DNA of 64,000 nucleotides from an archaeon. Its GTDB lineage: Archaea; Micrarchaeota; Micrarchaeia; CAILAH01. The stretch covers positions 3,897 to 67,896 of the forward strand of contig JAJSAH010000020.1 in the NCBI GenBank assembly GCA_024274875.1. Reading direction: 5' to 3'. Positions 26,563-50,227 of the stretch are shown here, piece by piece (within the stretch, counting starts at the first letter, position 1; every line of letters begins with the position of its first letter). Under the pieces are notes generated by a model that saw only the letters and a list, made by a program, of their open reading frames with translations, had not been told where the DNA came from and did not search any database. Position numbers and translations under genes: made by a program.

Positions 26563-29244
26563 TTATGGTTTGCTGTCCTCATAGTAAGAGCAAGAGACAG
26601 TTGTGACCTGAGCAACGGAAATGCTGTCCATATTCACTGCATCCAACGTTGATGATATTCCGCTGTCAGCATCAAGCAAGCTTATGGATTTAGATAGCAT
26701 CGAATTAAGCGCAAGATTTCCAAACGCATCTGCCTCCACCACGCAGTCATTTCTCGAGGATATGCAGTATCCATAAATCTCTTCAGATAATGTATCGCAC
26801 TCCTGCGCAACTTGGTCGTTCATTCCTTCATAAGCGCTTGAATATGCATCGAGAAGATATTCTGTGAACATATCTATGCACGCATCTTGTGTTTGCTGTT
26901 TCAAACTTTCGCATGACGATATGATTGACGCTTCGCTTGAGCATTCATCATAATTCTGCGCGCATATTAAGTTTGCGCATAATGAAATTACTTCGTTGGA
27001 GAACCAATCGCACCTGGATGCATACACTCCTTCCGGATGCATATCACCTTCCCAAAGACCTCTAAAAACATCTTTGCACGCATATTTATCCGCATCGTCC
27101 AGCAATTTGCTGCACAGCGAATCCGCAGTTGATGCGCATGAATAATAGTTGCCATAATAATTGCCCTCGCAGGCGCTATGCATGCATTCCATAGATAAGT
27201 TTAACTGCGCATGCCTGATTCCCTCATATAAAAATGATGTAATAACTGGATTCACCTTTGTCGAGCAATCTGGCTCCCTGCCAAGCAGAAAAATCTTTCG
27301 GATAGGGTTAGTTGCGCCATACGGCGCAGCAATCATGTATCTCCATTCCAAATATGAACATCCCGAATAATACTTCTCCTGGCCTTTTATGTAAGGAGAT
27401 CCTCTCATTACTAATACGCCTGTGCTTGCGACAGCAGGTTTTAATTCATCTGGCACTGCAATATCAGTAAGGTAATCTGCAAGTTCTTTGAATGCAATAT
27501 TAATCCTTTGCGAATATCCAAACCCTAGAAGATATATGTTAAATGTATCGCTCACATTTCCATACAACTGCGTTCCAAGCAAGTATTTTTGCTCTGCAGT
27601 CAGCAGTTTCGAATTAAAGCATAGCGATTCAGTAGTTATATCAACAACCTTGCAGGTTCCATCTTCGCACACATCCCTCATACACTGCCTATCAAAAGCA
27701 TCAACTTTCCCGTCTCCATTAAAATCAAACCTTCGGTCATACAATGAAGTGCACTGCGCATAACTCTCTGAAGAGCCAATATTTTCACCGCAATACGCAT
27801 CGAATATCTGCAAATCTGCAGTGTTTAGCAGCTCATCGCCATTCAAATCATACATTGCGCCATCATAATTGCACTCATAATAATTATCTACGCATATTTC
27901 AGGAGATTCTGTTTCAAAAACCCATGATGGAAGATCGGGATTATCCATCCAATCGTTAAATTGGTCTTCAGTGAATGTAGTCCATTCATTTTCGCCCTGC
28001 TCATCAGTTGATGTGCAGGCGATTGAGCCCGTGCTTAAAGGCAATACTCCAAATCCTCTGGCAATCAAGTTAGATAAATCAATGCATAAGAACTCAATGT
28101 CGCCTCTCTCAAACACTTCGCCCTCTTCACTGGCGCATGCGCCTGTTGATGCATCCCTGCATTCATACGGGCATGCGGGATCATAAACAAACCCTGGCGG
28201 GCAATCGCCGGCGCTCATGCAAGAGTATGTTTCAGAATCCGGCAAGGTCTTTGCGCACACTGAACCTGCGCACTCAACGCATGTCCCTGAAGCATCGCAC
28301 ACAGAGCACTGCTGGCCAACCAGTGATTCAGCGCATAGCATATTTTCGCATGATGCGCAATCCCCGCTGTTGACATCGCAACACCCAGAATCGCATCCTG
28401 CGCACGAATAATAACCTTCAGGGCACGCACCGATATCTGCGCATGTGTATGTTCCTAAAACGTTTGCGCACACTGAATCGCTGCACTCAACGCAGGTTCC
28501 GGAAGCATCGCACACAGAACACTGCTGGCCAATCTGTTCTGGGGAGCATTGCGCACCGCTGCACGATGCGCATTCTCCAGTTGCTGCTGCGCAGCATCCA
28601 GTATCGCAGTTATCGCATTGAACATAACCTGCGGGGCATGCGCCTTGCTGCTTGCACACATTCCTGTTGAGCAACGAATCATACGCGCAATAACTGTTAT
28701 CAGTGCAATCCGCGCAATTGCCTGATGAATCGCATATCTTGCATCTTTCTCCGGGTTCATCGCAAGGTTTATCGCTGCACCCTTCCAACAGTTCGCATCT
28801 GCCCTGAGCATTGCATGCATAATCCGAACAACAGGACTGCACATCCTGCGGATCGCACAGCAACCCTGCCTCGCAAGGCGCGCACTCTCCATCTGAACAC
28901 ACATATCCTGCGCAGCACGAGTCCTGCTCGCCGCACGATGCCGGATTTACACACGCTTGCTGAACCGCAAGACATTCCTGAGGGTTATCAACACTGCAAC
29001 ACTCGCCTTTCGGATTCATCACATATCCCTGCCCGCAAACGGAATAATCGCAGTAATCGATCTGATTGCCTAATGCATCAAGCACGCAGCACCCGCACGG
29101 ACTATTGCACTCAAATGCTTCATCAGGGCATTCCACTCCTCCATGTTGCGAGAACAACCATATTATAAGCAATCCAAGCACGACAAGCACTACTAATGCA
29201 ACGATTATTCTGTAATCTGCCTCGCCTCTATTTAACATTCCCAT
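26563..29244 (-). CDS. TM-anchored cysteine-rich surface protein with dockerin-like repeat pair (893 aa)
   Basis: N-term TM IVALVVLVVLGLLIIWLF; about 100 Cys in CxxC/CC modules in first 370 aa incl. a duplicated ~71-aa module; DLNGDELLNTADL...DFNGDGKVDAFD; last gene of operon. Confidence 0.7.
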   Translation of the reverse strand: MGMLNRGEADYRIIVALVVLVVLGLLIIWLFSQHGGVECPDEAFECNSPCGCCVLDALGNQIDYCDYSVCGQGYVMNPKGECCSVDNPQECLAVQQACVNPASCGEQDSCCAGYVCSDGECAPCEAGLLCDPQDVQSCCSDYACNAQGRCELLEGCSDKPCDEPGERCKICDSSGNCADCTDNSYCAYDSLLNRNVCKQQGACPAGYVQCDNCDTGCCAAATGECASCSGAQCSPEQIGQQCSVCDASGTCVECSDSVCANVLGTYTCADIGACPEGYYSCAGCDSGCCDVNSGDCASCENMLCAESLVGQQCSVCDASGTCVECAGSVCAKTLPDSETYSCMSAGDCPPGFVYDPACPYECRDASTGACASEEGEVFERGDIEFLCIDLSNLIARGFGVLPLSTGSIACTSTDEQGENEWTTFTEDQFNDWMDNPDLPSWVFETESPEICVDNYYECNYDGAMYDLNGDELLNTADLQIFDAYCGENIGSSESYAQCTSLYDRRFDFNGDGKVDAFDRQCMRDVCEDGTCKVVDITTESLCFNSKLLTAEQKYLLGTQLYGNVSDTFNIYLLGFGYSQRINIAFKELADYLTDIAVPDELKPAVASTGVLVMRGSPYIKGQEKYYSGCSYLEWRYMIAAPYGATNPIRKIFLLGREPDCSTKVNPVITSFLYEGIRHAQLNLSMECMHSACEGNYYGNYYSCASTADSLCSKLLDDADKYACKDVFRGLWEGDMHPEGVYASRCDWFSNEVISLCANLICAQNYDECSSEASIISSCESLKQQTQDACIDMFTEYLLDAYSSAYEGMNDQVAQECDTLSEEIYGYCISSRNDCVVEADAFGNLALNSMLSKSISLLDADSGISSTLDAVNMDSISVAQVTTVSCSYYEDSKP

Positions 29245-29251
29245 TTAACAT

Positions 29252-30862
29252 TCACCTCTGAACCACAACTGGGTCTGCAAAACATTGTTGCCCTTCCGGG
29301 CATGTTGCCGCTATGTTATCGCAATAATCTTCAGGAAGCACTTTCATAGAGTATGTAGGGTATTCATACGGAGACACTTGAGATGAGCTGTAATATGAAT
29401 TGCCACCGCAATCAAACGCATAATTAAACACTCCATCGCCCTGCTCATATGAAACTGTGCAACACGAACCCTGTTGCGCATCCTGATACCCTGATGCGCA
29501 TACATCAGAGGTTGTTGAAACAACACCGTCAGGGATGGCATTGCGCGGCAGTATGTACATGCAACATGCGTCAGGGTTATCGCTGCATTCGAATGCTCCA
29601 CTTGGACATGCCGCCTCAACAGATGGAGCGCATATGATCATGCCTCCTATTTGCTCGCACTCAGGCAATATAACTGCGCAACCGCGCCCTTCGCATAAGA
29701 ATGTTCCTTCTGGGCAAGCCACTATATTTTGCGCGCCCTGCTCGCAACAGCTGCAACCCTCTACATTTTCACATGGGTGACCGCTTGCACAGACCGAACA
29801 TTCGCCGGTCAAAGCATCGCAGCATCCTGAAGCGCAATCCTCCGCACTGCAAGCAACCTGTCCTTCACCGCAATTCCCAGAACTTTGACAAGTGAACATA
29901 GACGCTGCATCATTCCACGCGCACACAGTATCATCTGCGCAATCAATGCAATCATTTCCTGAGCAAACTATGCATGCTTCGCCAGGGTTGGAACATGGAA
30001 AACCTTCGCATGATTCCGCATACGCGCACGAACCCTGCGAACATACGCCGTCATCGCAGCAATCCTCGCTGAATGAACACGACCTGTCGCAAGATTCGCA
30101 GGCATTTGCATTCATATTGCATTCAAACCCGTTGCAGCATGGCTTGTCTTCATCGCAATACGCGCCCTGCTCGCAACCGCTGCACGATCCGTCTATGCAT
30201 GCATCGCCATCGCAACAATCCACATCAGATGAGCAGGAACGATAACAGCTTTCGCAGGCTCCAGCAACGCAGTTCCATCCGTTGCAACACTCATCATCTT
30301 CCGCGCAGGTTCTCTCGCATGAGATGCAAAACTCATTGCTGCACTCATAACCGCCGCAACAATCCGAATCAGATGCGCACGCAACATTATTGCAAGATTC
30401 GCATGTTCCCTCAGCCGTGCACATGAAACCTGAGCAACATGAGTTTGGGTCCTGCGGATCGCATACAAGCCCTGCTTCGCATGGAGCGCATCTTCCATTA
30501 CTGCATGAATAACCTTCGCAGCAATCCAAACTGCTTTCGCATGAGAGAGGATTAACGCATACTTTTTGATTAGTTATGCAATTCGCTGGGTTCTGAGCAT
30601 TGCAACACTGCCCTGTGCTTGGATTAAGTGAAAAACCTTCTGGGCACGACCCTGTCTCGCAGTACTCTACCAAATTGCCAAACCCATCTTCCACGCAGCA
30701 TCCGCATGCGCTTAGTGATGCATCGCACTGCACAGCTCCTTCTGGACAATTCCCGCCCAAATTCTGAAACAAAAGCATGAACAACAGCAAAAGCATGAAC
30801 CCAATAAGTAATATTGCAAGAAGTTCCATGCCTGTGTCATTATTTCTCCAAAACGGCATCAT
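29252..30862 (-). CDS. TM-anchored cysteine-rich protein, paralog of the N-terminal half of the 893-aa protein (536 aa)
   Basis: N-term TM LLAILLIGFMLLLLFMLLF; shares GRCAPCEAGLVCDPQD block (vs GECAPCEAGLLCDPQD); >90 Cys. Confidence 0.7.
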   Translation of the reverse strand: MMPFWRNNDTGMELLAILLIGFMLLLLFMLLFQNLGGNCPEGAVQCDASLSACGCCVEDGFGNLVEYCETGSCPEGFSLNPSTGQCCNAQNPANCITNQKVCVNPLSCESSLDCCEGYSCSNGRCAPCEAGLVCDPQDPNSCCSGFMCTAEGTCESCNNVACASDSDCCGGYECSNEFCISCERTCAEDDECCNGWNCVAGACESCYRSCSSDVDCCDGDACIDGSCSGCEQGAYCDEDKPCCNGFECNMNANACESCDRSCSFSEDCCDDGVCSQGSCAYAESCEGFPCSNPGEACIVCSGNDCIDCADDTVCAWNDAASMFTCQSSGNCGEGQVACSAEDCASGCCDALTGECSVCASGHPCENVEGCSCCEQGAQNIVACPEGTFLCEGRGCAVILPECEQIGGMIICAPSVEAACPSGAFECSDNPDACCMYILPRNAIPDGVVSTTSDVCASGYQDAQQGSCCTVSYEQGDGVFNYAFDCGGNSYYSSSQVSPYEYPTYSMKVLPEDYCDNIAATCPEGQQCFADPVVVQR

Positions 30863-30872
30863 TCCACCTATT

Positions 30873-33800
30873 CTACTCGCATTTATATTTCTTATACAAC
30901 TCCATCAAACGCGATTGGTCGCACATGTTGCCCTGCTGACCTTTAGGAATATCACTTTCAGAGAATATCATCAACGCCTGGCCTTCTCCCATATAATAGT
31001 AATTGCCGCATAAGTCAAACCAATGGCGCGCATACGGATCCTTCCTAACTGCGTTCTCAAGTATAACATCTGGATTGTTAACATCTTCAAATGAATTTAA
31101 CAGGTCTGCAACATCACTGCCTTCTCCGAAACTTGGCAGAGATATTCCTGATGAAGACAGCAGGTCTGAGTAAGATGATATTGTGTTTTCAAACTGCCCA
31201 TAACTTGATGCAAGATCCCCCTCCGTTTCGAAAGATGTGCTTGCAGACGATCCAAACATCGCTCCAGCATACTGCGAAAATGTGGGCATTCCGGGATACA
31301 GTTGATCCGTATGCACTCCATACGTGAATGGATCTTCCCCGCTTGTTGATGAATCATAATACAATCCGTAATCTTCGCCAGCTATCCCTGTTGACAATGG
31401 TTTGCACGAAGTATCAACCAAACAATACTGCCCCATGCCTATTATGCCTGAGCCGATCATTATCACAAAATCCTGGCCGTATAGGTCTTTCAGCTGCTTA
31501 ATCATTTCAGTATTAGTCCAACACGATTCATCCTCGTTTGCATTTCTATTTATGCCAAACCCTATTATTATTGATGGCATTCCATGATTAACAAGAGCAT
31601 ACCGCGATACATTATACAATCCTTCCAAATATGAAGAAATGGTGCACTCGCCTCTGCGCCCTGCGCCAGGGTCATCAATCACGACAATATATCCAACCAT
31701 ATCTGCCCTTTGCAGACCTTCACCCATTTTTTCTTTCAGCTTTTCATCAATCGCATCAATAGCATTCTTCATATTCTCTATATCAGCATCGCTCAACCTA
31801 AGTTCATTTGATGACATATGTATGTAAAACGGAATTGTCGAAATGCACCTCTGCTTGTAAACAGTGTTCTCATAAGGGCACATATACTTATATTGCAAAC
31901 CGTAACTTTCGCAGAAATCCTTATCTAAATCAACGCAGATGCCAGTATCCTCATCGCAGCAGCATCCATCAATTGAAAAATCGCGGTAGTCATAAGTATG
32001 CTCGATGTTTTCAGTTTCGGATTGTTCAGTTGCGCCGCCGCAAACTTCATCATCAACAGATTTAACGCTTCTGCACACACCCTCAATCTCTGCAATCTGG
32101 TCAGCAAGCCCTGAATAGCCTTCATCGCCTACGCTCGCAAGCTGGCTTACATCAATAAGCTCAGTTGTGATAAAGGAAGGTGTTGCAGGAGCGCGCGGGT
32201 TTAGCAGCTGCGTCCTGTAAACTGGATTATCCGCGCCCATTTTAGGCTCTGCGATTGATTCAGCAATCTCAGCCAGTATTGATAATTGGCTCGGGCTGCC
32301 AATCTCATCAACTGTGGCATATAGTTGCCTCTGCGTCAACGAATCTATAATTGAATGGGTGCTAACACGCTGCGCATCTCTGCATACGCGATCTCCAGGG
32401 CTCAAAGATTGCTCATCTTCAAAACCAGTTAAATAGTCTTTGAATATCACCGTTCGATCTTCATCATCTCTGTTAGTTATGCATAAGCGCGAATCTTCGC
32501 TGTTAGGAATGCTTACTTTTCGCGGCTGGAATGAGCTTATGTCTAACTCAATCTGAACCTCAGGTTTATACACATTAACTGTAAAGCTTTTTCCAGAGTA
32601 AGGGTTGTAAAATAGATACCTGATTTTTTTGCCATCGTTCGGTATCTGCAGCTCATTCGCAGTATTGAATGTTTGATGCTCGCCAGGACTTAATTCAAGC
32701 CGTCTTATCTTATCGCCCATCTCCACAGATTTGGCAGACAAGTATGCATCCATATCGATCGGGCTTACTGAATACTGCACGGAATCAATTATGCAATCCT
32801 CATAATCTCCGCTGCATATTTTGGTCATCTTATTCTGTATAACTCCATATATATCATCTTCCGAACACGGATCGAGCGCGCCGTAATACCATACAACTGC
32901 ATCAGGCCCTGTGTTATTTATAACTATTTCATCGCCGAGAGCAACATCAAGCTCATCAACTGAAACTGCGGTAGACGGATCACCTGGATCGATCTGCTGC
33001 ATTACGGTTAAGTTGTATAGATACACATCTGCATACAATGCGTTCTCCATAATGTAATCCATGCTAAGCGAAGTATTTCTGTACATTCTCCCATCGTGCG
33101 CAAAAGATGGCACTTTGTACAGCAAATCGCCCAACTCAGTATCTGCAAGATTGCGAGCGAACGGCGATATATGAGAAAATATAATTTCCTTCCCATCTTG
33201 CACATCTAAAAGATTTGGGTAGTAAGGCGACTCATGCACTGAATACCATCCCTGCATATCTGGAGAGTATGAAACCGTGCCAAGCGGCGAGATAACCTCT
33301 TGAATTCCATCAAATGTGTCCTCTCCATAACAAACCGCTTTCAGCCCTGACTCGCTGTTAATTTGGAATACGTCTGAGATCGCATAACCCTGCCCAAACT
33401 CGCTCACTCCTTCCTGAACCTCGCCTGCCAAAAAGTACGTGCGCCCAGGATCAATGCTGTTCACCATGAACAGAATGCCGTTTGTAAGAGAAGATTCATC
33501 TATTCCTCCTCTTATTCTGTTTCCTGGATCTAAATCATTGTTTGGATTGCTGGATGTATCGCAGGGCGTTTCTGGGAATTCGTAATAATCATTATTTATG
33601 AACCTATACACTCCATTATACTGGCCCACTGGATTTGATAGGTCGAAAAAGCGCACTCTTCCGCTCTCATCTTCTGAATATGCAAATGAATCTATTCCGC
33701 CAATCACATTCGCCAAATACCAATTGTCATCTCTCGTGCCCTTCAACTGGGAATCTGCGCCCCAATCCTGCTTTGTAGCCCTGCACCAATACCAAAGCTC

Positions 33801-36800
33801 TGTGCCTTCCTCATCAACTGTGCTATCTTCTGCAGGATAACCGCACAGCGCCCCGTATTTGTTGTATATTATCAACGGCTTAGAAGCAGCAACTATTAAA
33901 TCTGACCACAAAGCATTCTTAACATCATTGCTTAACCTACCTGGGATAGGCTTTGCTTCAAAATCCCGCTTATCACCGCAAGTCCTGCCGCCATAATTTT
34001 GGTTATAATCTCCTACAAAATCGCCCGTAAGCAAAAACGGCTGGGTCGTAATCAGCCTGCCGCACGGCCTCTGTATAGAATAATCATCAACAAATTTGAG
34101 GGCCGCATCATTGATTATTTCGCCATTCGCCAATATGAGCGTTTCTGGAACAATTTCAACAAAGCGTGAATCTGCGATATCGATTTTTCCATAATCCTGC
34201 CTATGCGACAGATCATACGGGTTTGGCACACTGCCAGGCATAATCGAACCAAATCCATACTGCAATCTGCCCACAACCTGCGGAAGCAGCACATAATCAT
34301 TTCTCTTGCTGCGCAAATACTCATATTTGCCAACGCCCCCAGCAAACGCGTCTCCTCCAAGCTCAGGCACTCCAATAATATGAGGAAATGAGTATGCAAA
34401 TTCTTCAGGATACACTGTGTTGTTGAACGGAACTATGAACCCAATCTTTTCTCCGATAGTATTTACATAACCGCACCCTGATTTCACCCAACCTGGCCTT
34501 TCCTCGCCGGGATTCTCGTTGTGGTACCACTTATCATACCACATGCTTGGGAATACATTAACACCCTTAACAACAAACAACGATCCTTTCCAATTCTTCA
34601 GCATGCTTTCACTGAATGCGCCTCCCGAATCGCTGTTGCTTAATATCCACGAACGGCCTGGCGCATACCTCCTGAGCAGTACTGAATAAGAATCTGAATA
34701 AACATCTCCTCCCAAGTCAACATATGTAAATCTCATTATCTTGTCGGATGTCTCTAACGCAATAGGAGTGAATATTCTGTACTCCCTTACTGCAAAGGTA
34801 TCCTTCATCCCTGTGATATACCCAGGAGTTAACTCAATTGTTCGCTGTTCAAGCTTAGATGTATATGTGTTTGGGATTATCCTATGCGTGCTTTTCAGCA
34901 CAAGAGACCCTACTCCATTTTCATCTGTATCTTGACTCCTGCCCAAAGATAATTTAATATCATCATATCCCATGTTCGGCAGCAGGGTTATATCAGTAAC
35001 TTTGGCTGCGCCGCCAACATACGGATCATGATTTGATAACGCATCTATATCGCTTGCCGATAAAGAATATGCAGTCATTTTCTGCGGGCTCCAAAACTGC
35101 TGAAGATCTGCTGTTGCGGGAGAGCCGTCATCAACTAACATGCAGTAAGAGTTTGCGCTGACATCGCTCGGCCTAAGCATTACTGCTCTGGGATCCTCTG
35201 CAAGATTGTGAAGCCTAACGAGATAATTGTCCGTTCCATGACTGTCCATTCTGTACGCATCATAAGAAACTTTCAATTCGTGAGTAACCGCGGCTTTCTT
35301 TAAATTGAACTGCTTTGACACTGTTCCGCTGCTCACGCTGAAAGTTATATCTTCATCAGGCATTTCAAAACTCCATCCATTCAACGAAGGCGAATATGCG
35401 CCAGCTTCAGGAGGAGCAGATACATCATCTCTTGAAATTCCATCTGCAAGCGTCACATTGACCTTGCTGCCTTCTGCGATTGAATAATTCTCAGGAATCG
35501 AAGGGTCAACCATATTAACATCAGTATCGCCAATTCTGGAATACACAAATACAGGCAATGCGTTATCATACGCGAGCATAGAACGCGCCTGCATAATCTC
35601 TGTCTTGCTCGGAACGCCGGACAACATTTGAACGCCAAACCCTAATGTGCTGCTTGAACCTACCCTTCCCAACGCAGATGCAGAACCTCCTTCAACATCG
35701 CCGCGTATCACTAACATATTTTTGGGAATATTGAACTGCTGCGCATCTTCATCATAATAACTTAGAGCAATGCCTCCTATCCTGCGCACAACAAAAACAT
35801 TAGCGCCAGGACGCAAAACTATTGAATCTCCACTGATCATGCGCCGCGCATTAATGCCAACCTCGAGATTTACAAAACCTGATTTCATATCATCCTCCTT
35901 GTACTGCACATTAAGCGCGCGCATCTTGTAATCTCCAAGCTGATATTCATACACTACCTGCTCGTTCGCAGGCGCTGTGATTGAGCGTTCTCCGTTTGAT
36001 GAATAAACTTTAATAGATATATCATAATCCGCATTGTTGCGTATCACGACATCCGGCACAGACAAATCTAACCTTGCCATGCTGAACCCTGTCCCATTTG
36101 AGATAGATAAATCCTCATACACTTTGTAATTAATATCATCAAGATTAACTACTTTTACATCAGGGAATTGCGAGAACAGATCTAAATTGAGCGGACCTTC
36201 AAACGCAGATGCGTAATCTGGAAACGCAACTTCAGCATATCCAGGCACGGAATTGCCGTTTACTATATATAATATGTTCTTGTCCCCTACCGCAACAAGA
36301 GCGTACAACCCAGTATCAGCATTCCTGAACATGTGCAATCCATCTGAATTCATATCATAGCATCTTTTCTGGCCTTTGGAAATCAATTCGCCTGACTGCG
36401 CAGCGCCGTTATCCCATTCCAAAGAAGACGAATCTGAAACTAATGTTGGCCCAATTATCCTAACATCAGAATCTACAGCATTTATGCATACCTTTCCGCC
36501 TTGAGCGACCCTTCCATCAGTAGGAACAAATGCAGTTGAATACGCATCTATGTTAAGAACATCGCCCCCAGTAGTTGAGATGTAAAACTTTGCGCCGGAC
36601 AATGTATCAACCAATTCATAGTTTGCTTCATTCTCAGACAAACTATAATCGCAGTAATCCTGCAACGGAGGCAACATAAATGAACCTGAATGCCCTTCAT
36701 CGCTCGAATACTCAACCTCTCTCTCTTCTCCAACAGGGTTTGAGATGCATATGAGGTCATCCTTTTTTGCGATAGATGAATACGGGGAATAATCATAATC

Positions 36801-39296
36801 ATTCACCCGAATGTTTGATTGGACATCCGATGGGAACACAACAACATACGCTTTGTTTCCAGCAGGATACTCTTTGTCTGAAATCCTGTAAATGCCGGGC
36901 TCTTTTATATCAAAACAGCATTCAAGACCAAAATATGATGATTTTGCCTGCACAGGCAGGTATGAATTCGGTTCATACAACGCCTTCTTTTCAAGCACAA
37001 GCGTTTTCTTTCCGCTGGGAGCTTCATTGCGCACGCACAACTTTGAGCCAAAAGGAATGGAGATTGCAACTGGAGCAAACAACGGCTCGTTGCTTCCCTG
37101 CACAGTTATAGTATCACCTTCAGTGTAAACTACATAACTGAAATCTTCGCTGCCTATGGTTGCAGTATACTCACCCGGGCCAGGCGCATACAGCAAGCGG
37201 ACTTTGTCATGCTCTACAACACGCATCACTATGCGCAATGACGAATCGCCTGCATCAAAAGAATCAGTCATTTCATCCTCTTGAGACCCGCTCCCTTCTA
37301 AATATACTGAACCATCCTCATTAACGCCAAAAGTTATTCCTTCGCCTAAATCCACTGAACTGCCCCTGCTCATCTCAGATATATCAAGATCGGCGCCTCC
37401 ATAAGATGCGCCAAAATAACTGCCTTCATTAATGGAGAAACTTGGACCCTGCAACTCTCCAGTGAACACTCCTGAAGCGTCATAATCTGCAGATGCAAAC
37501 ACTGCATCCAATTTAACAACGCCTTTGTAATAGAACTCAGGATTGCCTGCATTGTCAAGCCGCATCTCATTAAAATCAGTTATGGTTAGGTCTTCAGGAG
37601 TTATCACGCTAACTATGGCAAATGCATGCTCATTATCATCTACACCTATCTTTGTGGTTCCCAGAGTGAAATTTGTGCCCGAACCTGTTGGGAAACAGGT
37701 GCCTTTTCCTGCTTCAAGATATTTCAGAAGCGTCCTTGCCCCGCCATTTCCAATTAAATGCAATGTGTGATCCTTGCCTCCAACGTTGTCAAAGCATACC
37801 TCACCACCTTCAAACACAGTTGTGGTGCTTGGAGAGAATGGCAATAATCCTGCGCTTATTTCAATGTCCGCAGGTTTTGATGGCTTGCATAGTTTTTTAG
37901 CAAGCTCGTAATCATTAAAAGAGGGTCCCTGGCCAAGCATGAATATAGGTATTTCTTGGTTCTCGCTTGTCAGAACTTCCTTATACAATCCAGATGAGAA
38001 ATTATGCACTCCATAAACATACCCGCCCTGCGAAGAAGTATCAGATGTCTTCTTGCAGTATGTGTAATAATACTCATCATTTGAATTCGGCCGAGTGCAT
38101 TTGTATGTAGAATACACTGCAATATCGCATCTGCACTTGCAGATGAAATATCTCTGCTCGTCTTCTCCAGAGAATTCATCTTTGCCGCAAGTGTACACAT
38201 TCTTATAATACGGACCCAATGCATCCATCACCTCAATGCGCACATACCTGCCTTTTCCTATCCCTGCCCTGTCTATTTCAACGCATGGGTTTAAGCCATT
38301 GCATTTATTGAACTCTAAATCGGAATATGAGAACCCGCGCGCAGTAACGCCTGCATCAGATTTGCTGAAATCCTCTATGTCATCATTCGCATGCTCGCGC
38401 GAACACCTGTTGCACTCTTCACCTTTATCAGGGTTTTCCTTCGCTTCGCTGCATATATCTTCGCATCCTTTCACATATGTATCTGAACTTTCTTCAGATG
38501 AAGAATCAAGATACTCCTGAGCCAATTCTTCAAGCAACCTGTAATCATCTCTCAAGTTATCTATTCTCTTTGAATCAGGAGGATAAGCTGATGTGTCAAG
38601 AATAGGGTTGTATTCGAACCCTTTGGCATTGTATGGATACTGAATCGGCATGTTGGCTTGGCAGCCCATAGGGATTTTATAGGATAGTATGCCCCCCTCA
38701 TCACAGGTATAGCAACCTTCCTGCAAACTCGTGCAATTCAACGCATATTCAGAATTCCTAGCTGAGTCAGATACTGCGTTGCATCCCATATAATATGTTT
38801 CATCGCTTTGCTCATCCAACTTGAACTTCCCTATTGATCCCAAACCATCATAAAAAGATCCAGGATGGAGCGATTCGGAAGGGTATGCAATTCCAAACCC
38901 ATACCCGCGATCTCTCTTACCGCAGACCATTCCAGTGATGTAATACCCTACTTTTTTCTCAGTATCGAATGAACAATCATATTTAAGGCACAGCGTATCT
39001 GGAATGCTTAATACCTCGCATCTGTCACCTCTGTCTTCATAATACACAGTCCCCCGCGGGTCATCATTTGCCCCTTTATACGCAGGAGAACACTCCCACT
39101 TAACGTTCTTTTTCTCAACTTCTTTAACAACTGCCATGCAGCTTGCTTGTTTGCATTCGATGGGGGATTCAGGCACAGTCGGTTCGGCAGATTCCACAGT
39201 AATTTTCGTTGGGAGCTCTTGCCGAACATCATATTTAAGGCACCCTGCAAAGAACAATGCAACCAACAATAACAGCGCAGCGGTTAGTTTATACAC
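30873..39296 (-). CDS. Giant surface protein, 2807 aa, lipoprotein-type signal peptide
   Basis: MYKLTAALLLLVALFFAGC (lipobox-like), uninterrupted 8.4-kb ORF, many N-x-S/T sequons, Cys pairs, acidic Ser/Asp-rich tail; no TM beyond signal. Confidence 0.8.
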   Translation of the reverse strand: MYKLTAALLLLVALFFAGCLKYDVRQELPTKITVESAEPTVPESPIECKQASCMAVVKEVEKKNVKWECSPAYKGANDDPRGTVYYEDRGDRCEVLSIPDTLCLKYDCSFDTEKKVGYYITGMVCGKRDRGYGFGIAYPSESLHPGSFYDGLGSIGKFKLDEQSDETYYMGCNAVSDSARNSEYALNCTSLQEGCYTCDEGGILSYKIPMGCQANMPIQYPYNAKGFEYNPILDTSAYPPDSKRIDNLRDDYRLLEELAQEYLDSSSEESSDTYVKGCEDICSEAKENPDKGEECNRCSREHANDDIEDFSKSDAGVTARGFSYSDLEFNKCNGLNPCVEIDRAGIGKGRYVRIEVMDALGPYYKNVYTCGKDEFSGEDEQRYFICKCRCDIAVYSTYKCTRPNSNDEYYYTYCKKTSDTSSQGGYVYGVHNFSSGLYKEVLTSENQEIPIFMLGQGPSFNDYELAKKLCKPSKPADIEISAGLLPFSPSTTTVFEGGEVCFDNVGGKDHTLHLIGNGGARTLLKYLEAGKGTCFPTGSGTNFTLGTTKIGVDDNEHAFAIVSVITPEDLTITDFNEMRLDNAGNPEFYYKGVVKLDAVFASADYDASGVFTGELQGPSFSINEGSYFGASYGGADLDISEMSRGSSVDLGEGITFGVNEDGSVYLEGSGSQEDEMTDSFDAGDSSLRIVMRVVEHDKVRLLYAPGPGEYTATIGSEDFSYVVYTEGDTITVQGSNEPLFAPVAISIPFGSKLCVRNEAPSGKKTLVLEKKALYEPNSYLPVQAKSSYFGLECCFDIKEPGIYRISDKEYPAGNKAYVVVFPSDVQSNIRVNDYDYSPYSSIAKKDDLICISNPVGEEREVEYSSDEGHSGSFMLPPLQDYCDYSLSENEANYELVDTLSGAKFYISTTGGDVLNIDAYSTAFVPTDGRVAQGGKVCINAVDSDVRIIGPTLVSDSSSLEWDNGAAQSGELISKGQKRCYDMNSDGLHMFRNADTGLYALVAVGDKNILYIVNGNSVPGYAEVAFPDYASAFEGPLNLDLFSQFPDVKVVNLDDINYKVYEDLSISNGTGFSMARLDLSVPDVVIRNNADYDISIKVYSSNGERSITAPANEQVVYEYQLGDYKMRALNVQYKEDDMKSGFVNLEVGINARRMISGDSIVLRPGANVFVVRRIGGIALSYYDEDAQQFNIPKNMLVIRGDVEGGSASALGRVGSSSTLGFGVQMLSGVPSKTEIMQARSMLAYDNALPVFVYSRIGDTDVNMVDPSIPENYSIAEGSKVNVTLADGISRDDVSAPPEAGAYSPSLNGWSFEMPDEDITFSVSSGTVSKQFNLKKAAVTHELKVSYDAYRMDSHGTDNYLVRLHNLAEDPRAVMLRPSDVSANSYCMLVDDGSPATADLQQFWSPQKMTAYSLSASDIDALSNHDPYVGGAAKVTDITLLPNMGYDDIKLSLGRSQDTDENGVGSLVLKSTHRIIPNTYTSKLEQRTIELTPGYITGMKDTFAVREYRIFTPIALETSDKIMRFTYVDLGGDVYSDSYSVLLRRYAPGRSWILSNSDSGGAFSESMLKNWKGSLFVVKGVNVFPSMWYDKWYHNENPGEERPGWVKSGCGYVNTIGEKIGFIVPFNNTVYPEEFAYSFPHIIGVPELGGDAFAGGVGKYEYLRSKRNDYVLLPQVVGRLQYGFGSIMPGSVPNPYDLSHRQDYGKIDIADSRFVEIVPETLILANGEIINDAALKFVDDYSIQRPCGRLITTQPFLLTGDFVGDYNQNYGGRTCGDKRDFEAKPIPGRLSNDVKNALWSDLIVAASKPLIIYNKYGALCGYPAEDSTVDEEGTELWYWCRATKQDWGADSQLKGTRDDNWYLANVIGGIDSFAYSEDESGRVRFFDLSNPVGQYNGVYRFINNDYYEFPETPCDTSSNPNNDLDPGNRIRGGIDESSLTNGILFMVNSIDPGRTYFLAGEVQEGVSEFGQGYAISDVFQINSESGLKAVCYGEDTFDGIQEVISPLGTVSYSPDMQGWYSVHESPYYPNLLDVQDGKEIIFSHISPFARNLADTELGDLLYKVPSFAHDGRMYRNTSLSMDYIMENALYADVYLYNLTVMQQIDPGDPSTAVSVDELDVALGDEIVINNTGPDAVVWYYGALDPCSEDDIYGVIQNKMTKICSGDYEDCIIDSVQYSVSPIDMDAYLSAKSVEMGDKIRRLELSPGEHQTFNTANELQIPNDGKKIRYLFYNPYSGKSFTVNVYKPEVQIELDISSFQPRKVSIPNSEDSRLCITNRDDEDRTVIFKDYLTGFEDEQSLSPGDRVCRDAQRVSTHSIIDSLTQRQLYATVDEIGSPSQLSILAEIAESIAEPKMGADNPVYRTQLLNPRAPATPSFITTELIDVSQLASVGDEGYSGLADQIAEIEGVCRSVKSVDDEVCGGATEQSETENIEHTYDYRDFSIDGCCCDEDTGICVDLDKDFCESYGLQYKYMCPYENTVYKQRCISTIPFYIHMSSNELRLSDADIENMKNAIDAIDEKLKEKMGEGLQRADMVGYIVVIDDPGAGRRGECTISSYLEGLYNVSRYALVNHGMPSIIIGFGINRNANEDESCWTNTEMIKQLKDLYGQDFVIMIGSGIIGMGQYCLVDTSCKPLSTGIAGEDYGLYYDSSTSGEDPFTYGVHTDQLYPGMPTFSQYAGAMFGSSASTSFETEGDLASSYGQFENTISSYSDLLSSSGISLPSFGEGSDVADLLNSFEDVNNPDVILENAVRKDPYARHWFDLCGNYYYMGEGQALMIFSESDIPKGQQGNMCDQSRLMELYKKYKCE

Positions 39297-40070
39297 TCAT
39301 GACCCCCCTACTTCCAAAAGTTCTACATCAAACTTTTTATTCTTATTATCGTCATACACAATGTGCCTAAGCATTATTGGGATGCTCTCATCCACCCACA
39401 GCTCTTCCTCCCCATTCGCGTATATGAACACGCTTGCGTTGAATTTTCTTCCGCCTGCATTGTATGTTTCATACCTATCGAAGCTTTCCGCATCCAAATG
39501 CTCCTTGCACACAAACCATACTGGATACCCTGAACAGCTCATAACATTATTGTTGGACTGCTGAAAACTGCCAAAACCCTGCAAATCTGTTTGGTATTGC
39601 ACGCATTTCCCATCGCTCGCATAAGTATAGTATATGGCTATCTCTGTATGCCTTCCGCCGTAATTAGAAGTAACTGTTGATTTTATTCTGTAATACTGCC
39701 CAGTGAAAGAATCAAACTGATATGTTGAATGGACCGTGATATCCTCGAAGCTTACTGCATACTTCGTGCGCAATAACATTAATTCACTGGGATTGCCGAG
39801 CGGCGTGCAGTTGGAGAACTCCGATTGCTGATCAAACCATGTTCCCGAGCTCTGCTCAACAGCAGATTCTGGTTCTCTGTCGCCAATATTCTCACCAAAA
39901 TCCGCACCTGAAGATTCCTGGTTAGAACTCTGTTCAATTTCAGCAGCATTCGCAAACGGCATAACTTCATCATTATGCGAAGGTGAGTTTAAGTATGACA
40001 ATATAAGCACAAATGCGAACATCGCGCCTATCAGCAAAACTATCATCGTGTTGTCTTTGCTCAAATCCAC
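39297..40070 (-). CDS. Membrane-anchored hypothetical protein (257 aa)
   Basis: N-term TM MIVLLIGAMFAFVLILSYL then acidic Ser-rich linker and globular domain; stop abuts giant gene start. Confidence 0.5.
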   Translation of the reverse strand: MDLSKDNTMIVLLIGAMFAFVLILSYLNSPSHNDEVMPFANAAEIEQSSNQESSGADFGENIGDREPESAVEQSSGTWFDQQSEFSNCTPLGNPSELMLLRTKYAVSFEDITVHSTYQFDSFTGQYYRIKSTVTSNYGGRHTEIAIYYTYASDGKCVQYQTDLQGFGSFQQSNNNVMSCSGYPVWFVCKEHLDAESFDRYETYNAGGRKFNASVFIYANGEEELWVDESIPIMLRHIVYDDNKNKKFDVELLEVGGS

Positions 40071-47098: not shown

Positions 47099-50000
47099 AT
47101 GAGCATGAAAGCTTTGCACAGCAGTTTGCTAGCCATATTTGTAATTTCGTTGTTAGCGCTTAACCTAATCCATGCTAGCGCAGGATGTCTTATTCAAAAA
47201 ATCCCCACAGCGCTTGAGTTAAAAGAATCATACGATCCAGACACAAACAAGCTAATACTTTATGCTAAGTTGACATACATAGACCCAAATACTGGATTGG
47301 GCAAACCGCTCGAACAAAAAAAACTTAAATTCTACGTGAATTACACCACATCGCAAGGCAGTGAAAAAACTGATTCTTCAGTTTTATTTACTGACAGCAA
47401 AGGGAAGGCATCTGCGTTATTCGTTCTAAGCAATGCAGCAGAGCATAATTCAGCGGTTGTCTTTGAAGGCGATGATCTGTTTGGGAAAAGCATAGGCACA
47501 TTAAGCGGTGCGAAGGGCGCGCCGCAATCGTTTGAAACAAATCTTCCTGAAGGCATAAACATTACTACATGCATGCCGCTGCTTCTGCTGTTGGGATTTC
47601 TCGGTGCAGCGATGTATGCATCTGGAATGAATCCGTTTGGAGCTATTGATTTTACCGCGCCGCGCGGATTTACGATGCAGCGCAGGCTAAGGAAAGCATA
47701 CCAAGCAGGGTGGTTCTCAAGCATCGCAAGAGCTGTAGGGGGAACGCTGAGCGCAGTCGGCAGGTCAATGGTTAAAGGAAAAGGGGTTAAGGAAGAGGCG
47801 ATGAAAGAAGGAGAGAATGCAAACGAACAGAAGACCAAAGAGAAACTGCCTGTTAAGGGTAAGGGCAAGGGCAAATTGCCTACAAAAAGCAAAGGCGTGC
47901 GCATGGCCAGCAAGCAAGCGAAAAAAGCAATGGCCGCAAAAAAGCCTGTTGCAAAACCTAAAAAAATGGAAAAACCTCTGGGAGCGAAAGCAACGCTTGG
48001 AAAAGCCGCTCCAAAAGATGTTAGTTTAGAACAGCCAAAGACAGCTATCGCGCTCACCGCAACAGCAGGTTATGGGTTGATGCTCGACTTTTTAGGATGC
48101 ATTGCATCCGCCATGGGCGGCAATGTATGGGCTGCTAGTGGAATGAAGCTCAAAAAGCTCGATTTCATTAAAGATGGAAATAAGTACAAAGGTTATGTTA
48201 TACTCACGAACGCAACAACTCAAATCGTCAAAAAAGCTCTCTTTGAAGCTGCAAAAGAGCTATGGGCTAATAATTCATCTGTGCGCGAGGTAGGAAGCGC
48301 TTTGGCAAATGCAGTGCGTCAACTATCAGTGAATGCAGAGATTGGAAAAGACCTTGCAAAACGATTGGAAGAAGCAGTAGACTCGTTAAAAAACAAAGAA
48401 AAAAAGCTTAAAAAATCCATCAAATCGCTAAAAAAAGAAATAGAAAAAATCGAAGATAAGATGGATGTTGTGGGACCTGAAGAAAGAAAGTCACTCGCAA
48501 AGAAGCTTAATGAGAAAAACATTGAGCTGGACCTTGCTAAAGAACATCTCAGCGATGTTAAAGAAAGGATTACTGCTATTGAGGGAAAGATAAAAGCAAC
48601 TGAATCAATCATTGGAATGCCTACAAGGCTTGAGCAGATTGCGGAAGGCGCAAAACAGGTGAGCGAGATTGAAGAATCGCTTGCTGAAGTGCGTGAATCA
48701 GCGAAAAAAATATTTGAAGAGTTTGGCAGGGAGATGGGCGTAAGAAGGTATGACCAAATAAAAGTGAATAATCTCGAAGAATTCGCAAAACAATTAGAAA
48801 AGAAAGGCGATACTGAGAGGGCTGCACAGCTTCGAAACATGCTTGATGAATTCAAATCGAGCATGATTGATGCAGCGAACGCGCTAAGCAATGCGAGCAT
48901 GTTTGTGGGAAGTTCAAACGCAATGATACATAAAGGAAGCAAATTGTTGGGCGAATCTAGATTCCTTGCGGATGTTGATTCAAAAACTGTGCTGCAAGCA
49001 AAGTTGGGGGATATGGCAAGAAACCTGGATAATGCCATTGTTGGTTTCAACACGGTCAAAACCATGATTGATAATGGAATTCCAGTGAATTACAACATAG
49101 CTGTGAACTGCATAGATGATTTGACTGCTACGCTCGCAGCGCAGGGCATCAAATCAAAAAAGCTTGATGAACTGAGAATTAAAATGCATGAGTTAATTAA
49201 AAACCCTGAAACTGCCAGCGAAACCTTGAAAAGCATGCTCTCAATCGCGGATACGGATGTTTTACAAAATATTCGCAAGCACACCGAAAAATATGGCGTG
49301 CAGATAAAAACGCGCGGAGAGTTTGATAAGTTTATAACTAATATGAATGAGAAAGTGCAAAAAGCCGAAAAACCCGTGCAGGAAAAATTAGCTGAACCTG
49401 TTAAAAATCTTAAAGAATCCTATGATGCGCTGATTTCGTTCAGGGAACAGATGAAAGAGAATAAAGAGGTTGATTATCAGAAGCTAAACGAGCAAATCAA
49501 TAAAGCTAAAGAGTCGATTAACGCGCTTGGAATCAAACCCCCTGAAGCGCTTGACAAAATTAAGGAGAAAATTAAAGAACAGCCTGAATATGCAGATGAC
49601 AAATCTATCGGCAATATAATTGCAACAATAGATGTAGAAATTCTTCCTGAAGTAAAGAAACTGGCTGAGGAGAATAATCTTGAAGTAACCACAGAAAGCA
49701 GGTTTGATGAATATGTAAAAAATCTGAAGAAAGAATCAACGAAAGCGTGGGAGAAGAAAGACAAATATGTAAAAGAATACATGGCGGAGAAAGCAAAGAG
49801 CATGGCAAAAACTGAAAAAGAAAAAAAGATGGCTTCTAAATCTCCTGAGGCGGTGGTGCTGCGTCCAGTTGAACAGCCAATACCAAAAAACATAAAACTT
49901 GAAACCCCGCATTACGATGAAATTGTTAAGGAATTAAATAGAAGAAGTTACGAAAAGCTTGACAGATCGATAGAAGAAAGGAATAAACAGATTAACGACT

Positions 50001-50227
50001 TCTTGGAAATAGTTCCTGAAGAAAAACGGGATGCGATGGAGAAAGAACTATTTAATGAAAGACCGTTAATGCAAATGGATTTTGGAACGCTTGGCCCTCA
50101 AAAAGTTTTAGATATAGCTGAGGAAGAGGGGATAAGCAAAAGCGTGATAAAAGATGCAAAAAGAGAGATCGAGGGAATTAATCTTTTAAGAGAGGCATTG
50201 GGCCTTCAAAATGAATCTTCTGAATAA
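47099..50227 (+). CDS. Lys/Glu-rich coiled-coil membrane protein (1042 aa), divergent partner of the membrane operon
   Basis: Signal peptide ALHSSLLAIFVISLLALNLIHASAGC, TM ITTCMPLLLLLGFLGAAMYASG, AKK/PKK-rich linker, then about 700 aa heptad-like K/E-rich sequence. Confidence 0.6.
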   Translation: MSMKALHSSLLAIFVISLLALNLIHASAGCLIQKIPTALELKESYDPDTNKLILYAKLTYIDPNTGLGKPLEQKKLKFYVNYTTSQGSEKTDSSVLFTDSKGKASALFVLSNAAEHNSAVVFEGDDLFGKSIGTLSGAKGAPQSFETNLPEGINITTCMPLLLLLGFLGAAMYASGMNPFGAIDFTAPRGFTMQRRLRKAYQAGWFSSIARAVGGTLSAVGRSMVKGKGVKEEAMKEGENANEQKTKEKLPVKGKGKGKLPTKSKGVRMASKQAKKAMAAKKPVAKPKKMEKPLGAKATLGKAAPKDVSLEQPKTAIALTATAGYGLMLDFLGCIASAMGGNVWAASGMKLKKLDFIKDGNKYKGYVILTNATTQIVKKALFEAAKELWANNSSVREVGSALANAVRQLSVNAEIGKDLAKRLEEAVDSLKNKEKKLKKSIKSLKKEIEKIEDKMDVVGPEERKSLAKKLNEKNIELDLAKEHLSDVKERITAIEGKIKATESIIGMPTRLEQIAEGAKQVSEIEESLAEVRESAKKIFEEFGREMGVRRYDQIKVNNLEEFAKQLEKKGDTERAAQLRNMLDEFKSSMIDAANALSNASMFVGSSNAMIHKGSKLLGESRFLADVDSKTVLQAKLGDMARNLDNAIVGFNTVKTMIDNGIPVNYNIAVNCIDDLTATLAAQGIKSKKLDELRIKMHELIKNPETASETLKSMLSIADTDVLQNIRKHTEKYGVQIKTRGEFDKFITNMNEKVQKAEKPVQEKLAEPVKNLKESYDALISFREQMKENKEVDYQKLNEQINKAKESINALGIKPPEALDKIKEKIKEQPEYADDKSIGNIIATIDVEILPEVKKLAEENNLEVTTESRFDEYVKNLKKESTKAWEKKDKYVKEYMAEKAKSMAKTEKEKKMASKSPEAVVLRPVEQPIPKNIKLETPHYDEIVKELNRRSYEKLDRSIEERNKQINDFLEIVPEEKRDAMEKELFNERPLMQMDFGTLGPQKVLDIAEEEGISKSVIKDAKREIEGINLLREALGLQNESSE

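Follow-up and report, generated by a model that had tools for sequence, protein, structure and literature searches.

Two adjacent genes in the genome of a tiny, symbiotic Micrarchaeota archaeon (contig JAJSAH010000020.1; the 64,000 nt analysed are hereafter called the window) raise the question of what proteins so densely packed with cysteine do, and whether their cysteines staple an extracellular structure or hold metal. The genes, A893 and B536, encode products that are among the most cysteine-dense prokaryotic proteins, and the locus supplies concrete candidates, in a conserved lineage-restricted operon of membrane and surface proteins without a known family, in an area where the molecular basis of host attachment and exchange by DPANN archaea such as Micrarchaeota is largely unknown and where, in the available part of a cryo-tomography report, the proteins of the imaged structures are unidentified (PMC11329633). 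On balance, we lean towards the interpretation that A893 and B536 act outside the cell as disulfide-stapled subunits, for a stalk or for adhesion, in a surface complex peculiar to their lineage. We infer the extracellular location, disulfide bonding, complex formation and adhesive or structural role from indirect evidence, which supports the disulfide-knotted extracellular stalk that a first reading of the sequence (the original prediction) had suggested. The family is undescribed and lineage-restricted. Its main module is knottin-like, and both the host domain and the architecture are new for such modules.

Two paralogous genes in minus-strand frames

Both open reading frames (ORFs) of the original prediction, 893 and 536 aa on the minus strand, lie exactly where it placed them (Table 1) and are by far the longest of the locus; in alternative frames the longest stretch is 149 aa when counted from a start codon and 165 aa when counted from stop to stop. 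NCBI lists B536 as a protein of 535 aa (P0005) that starts at the second Met, so that AlphaFold2 residue numbers for B536 are ORF numbers minus one. The original prediction gave each protein more than 90 cysteines, which is slightly high: A893 has 89 (10.0% of residues) and B536 has 87 (16.2%). The odd totals of 89 and 87 recur in the closest orthologues, P0002 and P0006, and parity is inconsistent in more distant homologues. Histidine is nearly absent (4 residues in A893, 1 in B536), and the CxxCH motif occurs in neither protein; a multihaem cytochrome was rejected on these grounds.

DNA of an orthologous locus (L001) was threaded onto the protein alignments of A893 and B536. Differing positions at the first, second and third codon positions were 0.30, 0.21 and 0.56 for A893 and 0.25, 0.18 and 0.56 for B536, and every cysteine is kept in the L001 orthologues (89 of 89 at 61% overall identity for A893; 87 of 87 at 67% for B536). 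Codon-position divergence and full cysteine conservation together mean that A893 and B536 are real genes under purifying selection in the minus-strand frames, and they rule out the plus-strand gene that the original prediction had named as a possible error. Its attribution of two further oddities to composition also holds. The local rise in GC content (52.8% at 28–29 kb and ~48% at 29–31 kb, against roughly 41–44% in flanking genes) overlaps the Cys-, Gly- and Ala-rich segments, with TGC as the dominant cysteine codon (79 of 89 in A893, 68 of 87 in B536), and stop-free shadow stretches of at least 80 aa in alternative frames have a density of 4.1 per kb in Cys-rich segments versus 1.3–1.4 per kb in the rest of A893 and in the giant gene next to B536, none of them exceeding 165 aa.

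As had also been proposed, A893 and B536 are, judged by alignment, paralogues: BLASTP aligns them with E = 1e-37 and 32% identity across ~500 aa. Residues 33–150 are 53% identical (42% with cysteine columns ignored) and contain the near-identical block that the original prediction had pointed out, GECAPCEAGLLCDPQD in A893 and GRCAPCEAGLVCDPQD in B536. The two proteins begin alike, with a short tail carrying an acidic patch, a 19-residue hydrophobic helix and a 60-residue Cys-rich module that matched no known family. The helix, at residues 13–31 of A893 and 14–32 of B536, is the one strongly hydrophobic segment in each protein (mean Kyte–Doolittle hydrophobicity 3.2–3.4), in agreement with the predicted single transmembrane (TM) helix. 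Lys or Arg is present in the N-terminal flank of 22 of 23 family members and is rare in the 15 residues past the anchor, a distribution that weakly favours a signal anchor in N-in/C-out orientation.

Three further observations concern this shared region. An acidic patch (DDDG, DEDT or EEDS) directly before the anchor helix is conserved in the A/B family members examined and may be a sorting or assembly signal; a class III (pilin-like) signal peptide, which is expected to carry a basic K/R-G before the helix, was rejected because the motif in A893 and B536 is acidic. The 257-aa protein encoded upstream in the same operon has an N-terminus, KDNTMIVLLIGAMF, that resembles the B536 N-terminus, NDTGMELLAILLIG. 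Over aa 33–150 (28795–29130 and 30400–30748, minus strand), identity between A893 and B536 (53%) equals or exceeds that of either to its distant orthologues (42–57%), which suggests co-evolution or gene conversion of the N-terminal ectodomains of the adjacent paralogues; the best common 50-nt block has a DNA identity of only 76%.

Six-cysteine units with a knottin-like signature

The six-cysteine units that follow the shared module in both proteins are 22–27 residues long with the spacing C-x3-6-C-x5-7-CC-x4-C-x4-6-C, that is, the six-cysteine knottin framework C-C-CC-C-C with short loops, and are present seven times in B536 and twice in A893. Across the family, 92 distinct units from 23 members fit C-x2-7-C-x4-8-CC-x3-5-C-x3-9-C with the consensus CxxxxCxxxxxCCxGxxCxxGxC, the third residue past the CC doublet often being aromatic (CCAGYVC, CCNGWNC, CCNGFEC). 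When a profile of 58 aligned units was searched against PDB sequences (177,635 distinct chains, E <= 10), all 22 matches were inhibitor-cystine-knot (ICK) peptides (best E = 0.003), including the spider toxins Hi1a (a double-knot toxin), Tsp1a, ProTx-II, heteropodatoxin-2, hainantoxins, GsMTx2 and VSTx1 as well as plant alstotide alpha-amylase inhibitors. Scanned one by one against Pfam, 28 of the 58 units matched Toxin_12 (best E = 0.0011, below the 21-bit cut-off), 16 matched Dickkopf_N and 13 matched Toxin_23 (both below the curated cut-off), with smaller counts mostly for families of conotoxins, squash inhibitors and carboxypeptidase inhibitors, among others, the majority being knottin families.

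An AlphaFold2 model of B536, built from a 12-sequence alignment, gave the six-cysteine array a pLDDT of ~78–85. In the model, each unit has a short helical turn ahead of the CC doublet and a beta-hairpin that carries Cys V and Cys VI, with an EEEE--EEEE pattern over the CxxxxC segment. A turn with a beta-hairpin bearing Cys V and VI is the arrangement known from ICK peptides, and this knottin trait is thus predicted for the B536 units. From its sequence signature, each unit is presumably disulfide bonded; the I–IV, II–V, III–VI connectivity by which knottins are defined, with the third bond threaded through the ring, is putative here.

The units are most like ICK peptides of the Toxin_12 spider toxins (ProTx-II, Tsp1a, Hi1a) and plant alstotides, with which they have in common the C-C-CC-C-C framework, similar loop lengths, the motif (D/E)CCxG(aromatic or aliphatic)xC and the predicted Cys V/VI beta-hairpin, and double-knot toxins are a precedent for tandem arrangement. 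Unlike the free, secreted ICK peptides of eukaryotes, however, they stand seven in a row on two-residue linkers in a membrane-anchored archaeal protein, their loops are acidic and their scores lie below the family cut-offs, and their knotted connectivity is putative. The Dickkopf_N domain (PF04706; PDB 5o57, Dkk4) has the motif C-x3-(D)-CC-x-G-x-x-C-x-x-G-x-C in common with the units, but the score of 20.9 bits falls short of the cut-off of 25, with only the C-terminal half of the model aligned, and Dickkopf, a Wnt antagonist of metazoans, has a 10-Cys domain and an architecture that is otherwise not that of A893 or B536.

Other modules of the two proteins

Beyond the six-cysteine units, both proteins carry a second kind of Cys-rich module with 12 cysteines, one copy in B536 and three tandem copies in A893, the latter still visible in the DNA as a 116-nt direct repeat (77% identity, 213-nt spacing); a profile of this module matched nothing in the PDB. 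Past the 12-Cys modules, A893 continues through an acidic linker of low model confidence into a dockerin-like module, then an alpha/beta region and finally a helical bundle. The dockerin-like module (aa 465–521) reaches the Pfam Dockerin_1 (PF00404) cut-off of 22.9 bits when scored as a sub-sequence (23.6 bits) and falls just short of it on full-length A893 (22.8 bits), which suggests a type I dockerin by sequence. The Asp and Asn residues of its two DxNxDGxxxxxD loops are invariant in four A-type orthologues. In the reverse direction, when the A-family profile was run in an exhaustive HMMER search, ~78 proteins matched in the dockerin-like segment alone, and all six of those checked are dockerin proteins by Pfam (five of the six with at least five separately scored copies); against the PDB, all seven matches of the A-family profile are cellulosomal dockerins. 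The duplicated calcium loops are like those of cellulosomal type I dockerins, whereas the A893 module is single, internal and part of a Cys-rich membrane protein, with no cohesin or carbohydrate-active enzyme nearby.

The AlphaFold2 model of whole A893 is poor (mean pLDDT 56), and only its C-terminal helical bundle (pLDDT 80–95) was therefore used; the cysteines of this bundle are invariant among A-type orthologues, and Foldseek found no significant match to it in the PDB. B536 ends in a domain that is beta-rich in the model (pLDDT 80–91) and has no structural match; in the B-family alignment its columns of Y, F, SPYE and C are conserved. Searched whole against Pfam (E <= 0.01), NCBIfam (E <= 0.1) and PHROGs, A893 and B536 gave no match apart from the dockerin module, and neither matched the catalogued prokaryotic Cys-rich repeats (Myxococcus-type and other NCBIfam or Pfam Cys-rich families).

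Extracellular stalks as the favoured interpretation

If these parts are read together, A893 and B536 would be single-pass proteins in N-in, C-out orientation, with ectodomains in which small modules, stapled by disulfides, stack into rods; the prevailing module would be the 22–27-residue unit with its ICK framework. The B536 rod would consist of seven units on two-residue linkers with a beta-rich head at its distal end, and the A893 rod of two units, three 12-Cys modules, the dockerin-like and putatively calcium-binding module and a disulfide-containing helical-bundle head. Such stalks would be rigid and resistant to proteases and stress; they may assemble with partners from the operon through the dockerin-like module and the N-terminal region common to both, and may contact the outside, possibly a host cell, with their distal heads. 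The dockerin-like module, the neighbouring giant protein with its lipobox-like N-terminus and the Lys/Arg residues before the anchor point to the cell exterior, and the scarcity of histidine, the missing CxxCH motif and the gain and loss of whole units between homologues fit an extracellular rod of independently folded mini-domains.

Several observations weigh against this interpretation. Every knottin-family match lies below its curated cut-off (best unit E ~5e-4 to 3e-3), the units score at most ~16–20 bits with Toxin_12 against the cut-off of 21, and a profile of six cysteines at ICK spacing tends to find ICK peptides whether or not they are homologous; the sub-cut-off scores and this bias make the knottin likeness a systematic resemblance and not a demonstrated membership. 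In the structure prediction that the original prediction had proposed as a check for knottin-type folds, the turn and beta-hairpin appear in every modelled unit of B536; a Foldseek search of the model against the PDB gave no match at E <= 1e-3. The single plausible Foldseek match is the Dkk4 N-terminal domain (probability 0.92, 34% identity over 53 columns) and not a classical knottin, and the best PDB match of a whole-protein profile is the same Dkk4 chain (5o57), at a weak E = 0.012. Both cysteine totals are odd, which would leave one cysteine of each chain unpaired and possibly available to link two chains. Pfam searches of ~40 ORFs in the window revealed no oxidoreductase of the Dsb, VKOR or thioredoxin type, and a six-frame CxxC motif scan for such enzymes matched only inside A893 and B536 or in shadow frames. 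Because acidic residues prevail in the N-terminal tails, topology is only weakly predicted from charge. No cohesin match was found in the giant protein or any other operon product.

Alternative interpretations

An alternative interpretation is that the cysteines bind zinc or another thiophilic metal and form no disulfides, the proteins perhaps being a cytoplasmic (N-out/C-in) metal store, sensor or zinc-ribbon-like scaffold. This would make A893 and B536 an unusual membrane-tethered metal store, and it would agree with the regular recurrence of CxxC pairs at unit junctions (11–12 per protein), with the acidic tails that weaken the N-in prediction, with the lack of an extracytoplasmic disulfide oxidoreductase in the window and with the usual reading of dark Cys-rich archaeal domains as metal binders (PMC13607799). 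We consider it improbable because the unit profile finds disulfide-knotted peptides only and no zinc fingers, histidine is almost absent, the mini-domains that AlphaFold2 builds without metal are regular beta-hairpins, an extracellular setting suits the dockerin-like module and the lipobox-bearing giant, and Lys/Arg residues are concentrated ahead of the anchor.

To about the same low degree, we credit the idea that the knottin-like arrays are bioactive, acting in the manner of bivalent double-knot spider toxins as multivalent inhibitors or ligands, such as blockers of channels or transporters or inhibitors of proteases or glycosidases, that the symbiont presents against host surface proteins. 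The closest sequence matches of the units are indeed ion-channel toxins, the double-knot Hi1a included, and knottin enzyme inhibitors, and Micrarchaeota are host-dependent ectosymbionts (PMC8784108, PMC8975820, PMC11329633). However, the loops are short and acidic (79 Asp and Glu versus 11 Lys and Arg in B536), whereas channel toxins usually have basic or hydrophobic patches; the two-residue spacing and the conservation among orthologues fit a rigid rod better than fast-evolving effector loops; and there is no sign of release from the membrane.

Less credible again is that A893 is a cellulosome-like component whose dockerin plugs into a cohesin scaffold, its Cys-rich part being a mere spacer. 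The Dockerin_1 match at the gathering threshold and reciprocal searches that find dockerin proteins and structures speak for it, but no cohesin was detected in the giant or the other operon products, the neighbourhood has no glycoside hydrolases and B536 is equally conserved without a dockerin module. Finally, the idea that the ORFs are composition artefacts and that the plus strand or a different frame holds the true gene is refuted: stop-free stretches in alternative frames are ~3 times denser than in neighbouring genes, but none is longer than 165 aa, codon-position divergence matches the minus-strand frames and full-length homologues exist in several independent assemblies.

A family restricted to Micrarchaeota

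The family to which A893 and B536 belong is very small. A word-indexed search of 5.8 billion proteins returned 4 A-type and 8 B-type sequences, an exhaustive search of 1.84 billion representatives returned ~17 proteins that share more than the dockerin module, and an A-family scan of 185,579 species-representative genomes found three loci only, all in Micrarchaeota; a scan of genome representatives with B536 alone gave no match. Every named source is Candidatus Micrarchaeia or Micrarchaeota, and record and sample names suggest hot springs and lake sediment as sources. Most cysteines are invariant at 32–40% identity across the eight B and four A homologues (~60 invariant cysteines among the eight homologues of B536), and whole six-cysteine units have been gained or lost, with extra units in P0011 and a deletion in P0012. 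In two A-type orthologues of ~1,200 aa with 162–163 cysteines, P0004 (L003, 10001–13627) and P0038, ten knottin-like units alternate with CPAGQ...GCCDA modules; such expansion in some Micrarchaeia means that array length is evolutionarily plastic.

Literature searches on the family, on DPANN cysteine-rich proteins and on archaeal knottins turned up no paper that describes the A893/B536 family. In a 2013 survey of PDB chains, none of the archaeal entries was predicted to hold a sequential tri-disulfide (knottin-type) peptide (PMC4491269). If the units prove to be genuine cystine knots, the known range of the knottin scaffold would come to include Archaea and the new form of long membrane-anchored tandem arrays, which would bear on protein evolution (convergence versus ancient origin), on the engineering of hyper-stable scaffolds and on extracytoplasmic disulfide formation in archaea without an obvious Dsb system. 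Tandem small disulfide-rich domains in exposed, protease-resistant surface or secreted proteins are likewise found in secreted cysteine-rich repeat proteins (SCREPs) and in the variant-specific and high-cysteine membrane proteins of Giardia, and the available part of the SCREP report mentions bacteria and eukaryotes only (PMC6262176). Neither group has a sequence relationship to A893 or B536, and the Giardia variant-specific surface proteins (VSPs) are anchored C-terminally and rely on CxxC. SLP_Mh, the S-layer protein of Ca. Micrarchaeum harzensis, is from the same phylum, lies at the surface and has an N-terminal hydrophobic segment like those of A893 and B536, but it has almost no sulfur-containing residues and has recognisable S-layer domains; an S-layer role was rejected for A893 and B536, which have 10–16% cysteine and no S-layer domain match.

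Operon and genomic neighbourhood

A893 and B536 are the last two genes of a co-directional string of ten with intergenic gaps of 0–10 nt, in the order six membrane paralogues, a 257-aa single-pass protein, a 2807-aa giant, B536 and A893 (Table 1); the operon is conserved within a small Micrarchaeia clade. None of the eight upstream proteins matches a Pfam, NCBIfam or PHROGs family. Beyond a sub-threshold cupredoxin-like match at aa 2244–2302, the giant has no recognisable domain, and Pfam, PHROGs and the PDB gave it no family match. The six membrane paralogues are 20–24% identical and have an LPxG...RSFxxTRxxG motif in common; searches of Pfam, NCBIfam, PHROGs and the PDB gave no match for them, and all homologues found are hypothetical proteins of Micrarchaeia. 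The first of them probably starts at about aa 33 of its ORF.

Table 1 Features of A893, B536 and their genomic surroundings, in positions of the window.
Feature	Position (nt)	Strand	Basis
Gene A893, 893 aa, type-II-like membrane-anchored, Cys-rich	26563..29244	-	ORF; orthologues of like architecture
A893 N-terminal hydrophobic anchor, aa 13–31; tail before it with acidic patch and 2 Lys/Arg	29152..29208	-	Hydrophobicity; flank charges
A893 N-terminal Cys-rich module, aa 39–97, common with B536	28954..29130	-	Colinear BLASTP; Cys invariant in family alignments
A893 two knottin-like six-Cys units, aa 98–121 and 124–150, including GECAPCEAGLLCDPQD	28795..28953	-	Spacing; PDB profile; Pfam
A893 three tandem 12-Cys modules, ~71 aa each, aa 156–370	28135..28779	-	Copies 39–48% identical
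A893 dockerin-type-I-like double calcium-binding loop, aa 465–521	27682..27852	-	Pfam Dockerin_1
A893 C-terminal helical bundle with conserved Cys, aa 666–850	26695..27249	-	AlphaFold2 pLDDT 80–95, this segment only
Gene B536, 536 aa, membrane-anchored, Cys-rich	29252..30862	-	ORF; homologues; codon-position pattern
B536 N-terminal hydrophobic anchor, aa 14–32; acidic motif NDTGME before it	30767..30823	-	Hydrophobicity; alignment
B536 N-terminal Cys-rich module, aa 39–101, paralogous to A893 aa 39–97	30560..30748	-	BLASTP; alignments
B536 seven tandem knottin-like six-Cys units, aa 102–279, two-residue linkers	30026..30559	-	Spacing; AlphaFold2; PDB/Pfam
B536 12-Cys module, aa 285–358	29789..30010	-	Module alignment; BLASTP
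B536 C-terminal beta-rich domain, ~aa 440–536	29255..29545	-	AlphaFold2 pLDDT 80–91; beta strands
Giant protein, 2807 aa, lipobox-like N-terminus (LFFAGC; LLLLVALFFAGC)	30873..39296	-	ORF
257-aa single-pass protein, N-terminal anchor like that of B536	39297..40070	-	Sequence
Six tandem paralogous polytopic membrane proteins, 310–492 aa	40072..47136	-	Alignment; shared motif
KaiC-like (ArlH/RadB-type) single-domain ATPase, 235 aa	25848..26555	+	
1042-aa protein	47099..50227	+	
941-aa membrane protein	54201..57026	-	

The order giant, B, A recurs in three related loci (L001, L002 and L003), where housekeeping genes flank the cluster. Three others (L005, L006 and L007) have the membrane paralogues, a 257–281-aa protein and the giant, followed by B in L005 and L007; a giant of ~2,800–3,000 aa occupies the same position in L003, L005 and L007. 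The window itself is core archaeal chromosome, with ribosomal proteins, SecY, FtsY, SRP54, PCNA, TFIIE, an AglB-like protein and glutamate dehydrogenase. Conserved gene order and housekeeping flanks in related genomes argue for a chromosomal, lineage-specific system and not a mobile element. A viral or mobile origin was rejected on the core-gene neighbourhood, which is syntenic across genomes, and on the lack of PHROG matches.

A bolder extension of the favoured interpretation, which we regard as unlikely though worth stating, is that the operon encodes a hitherto unrecognised, Micrarchaeia-specific envelope machine for host contact or exchange, with a hetero-oligomeric membrane platform of the six paralogues, a lipid-anchored extracellular protein of ~300 kDa and two knottin-armoured stalks whose arrays would bind host surface or membrane proteins multivalently and would be the first cystine-knot modules in Archaea. 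Cryo-electron tomography (cryo-ET) of a Micrarchaeota co-culture revealed intercellular nanotubes, for which the available part of the report yielded no named candidate proteins (PMC11329633). A link between these nanotubes and the operon is speculative, and no evidence was found that the co-culture organism carries the operon.

Three neighbouring genes outside the operon deserve mention. The KaiC-like ATPase gene is convergent with the operon end across a 7-nt gap, an arrangement found also in L001 and L003 and not in L002. Divergent from the operon lies the gene for the 1042-aa protein, which has an N-terminal signal-like segment, a further TM segment at ~aa 152–170, a region rich in Lys and a long coiled coil, for which weak matches of SMC-like type were obtained. 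The 941-aa membrane protein has a sub-threshold match to the AglB core domain (24 bits against a cut-off of 27) and may be a divergent oligosaccharyltransferase.

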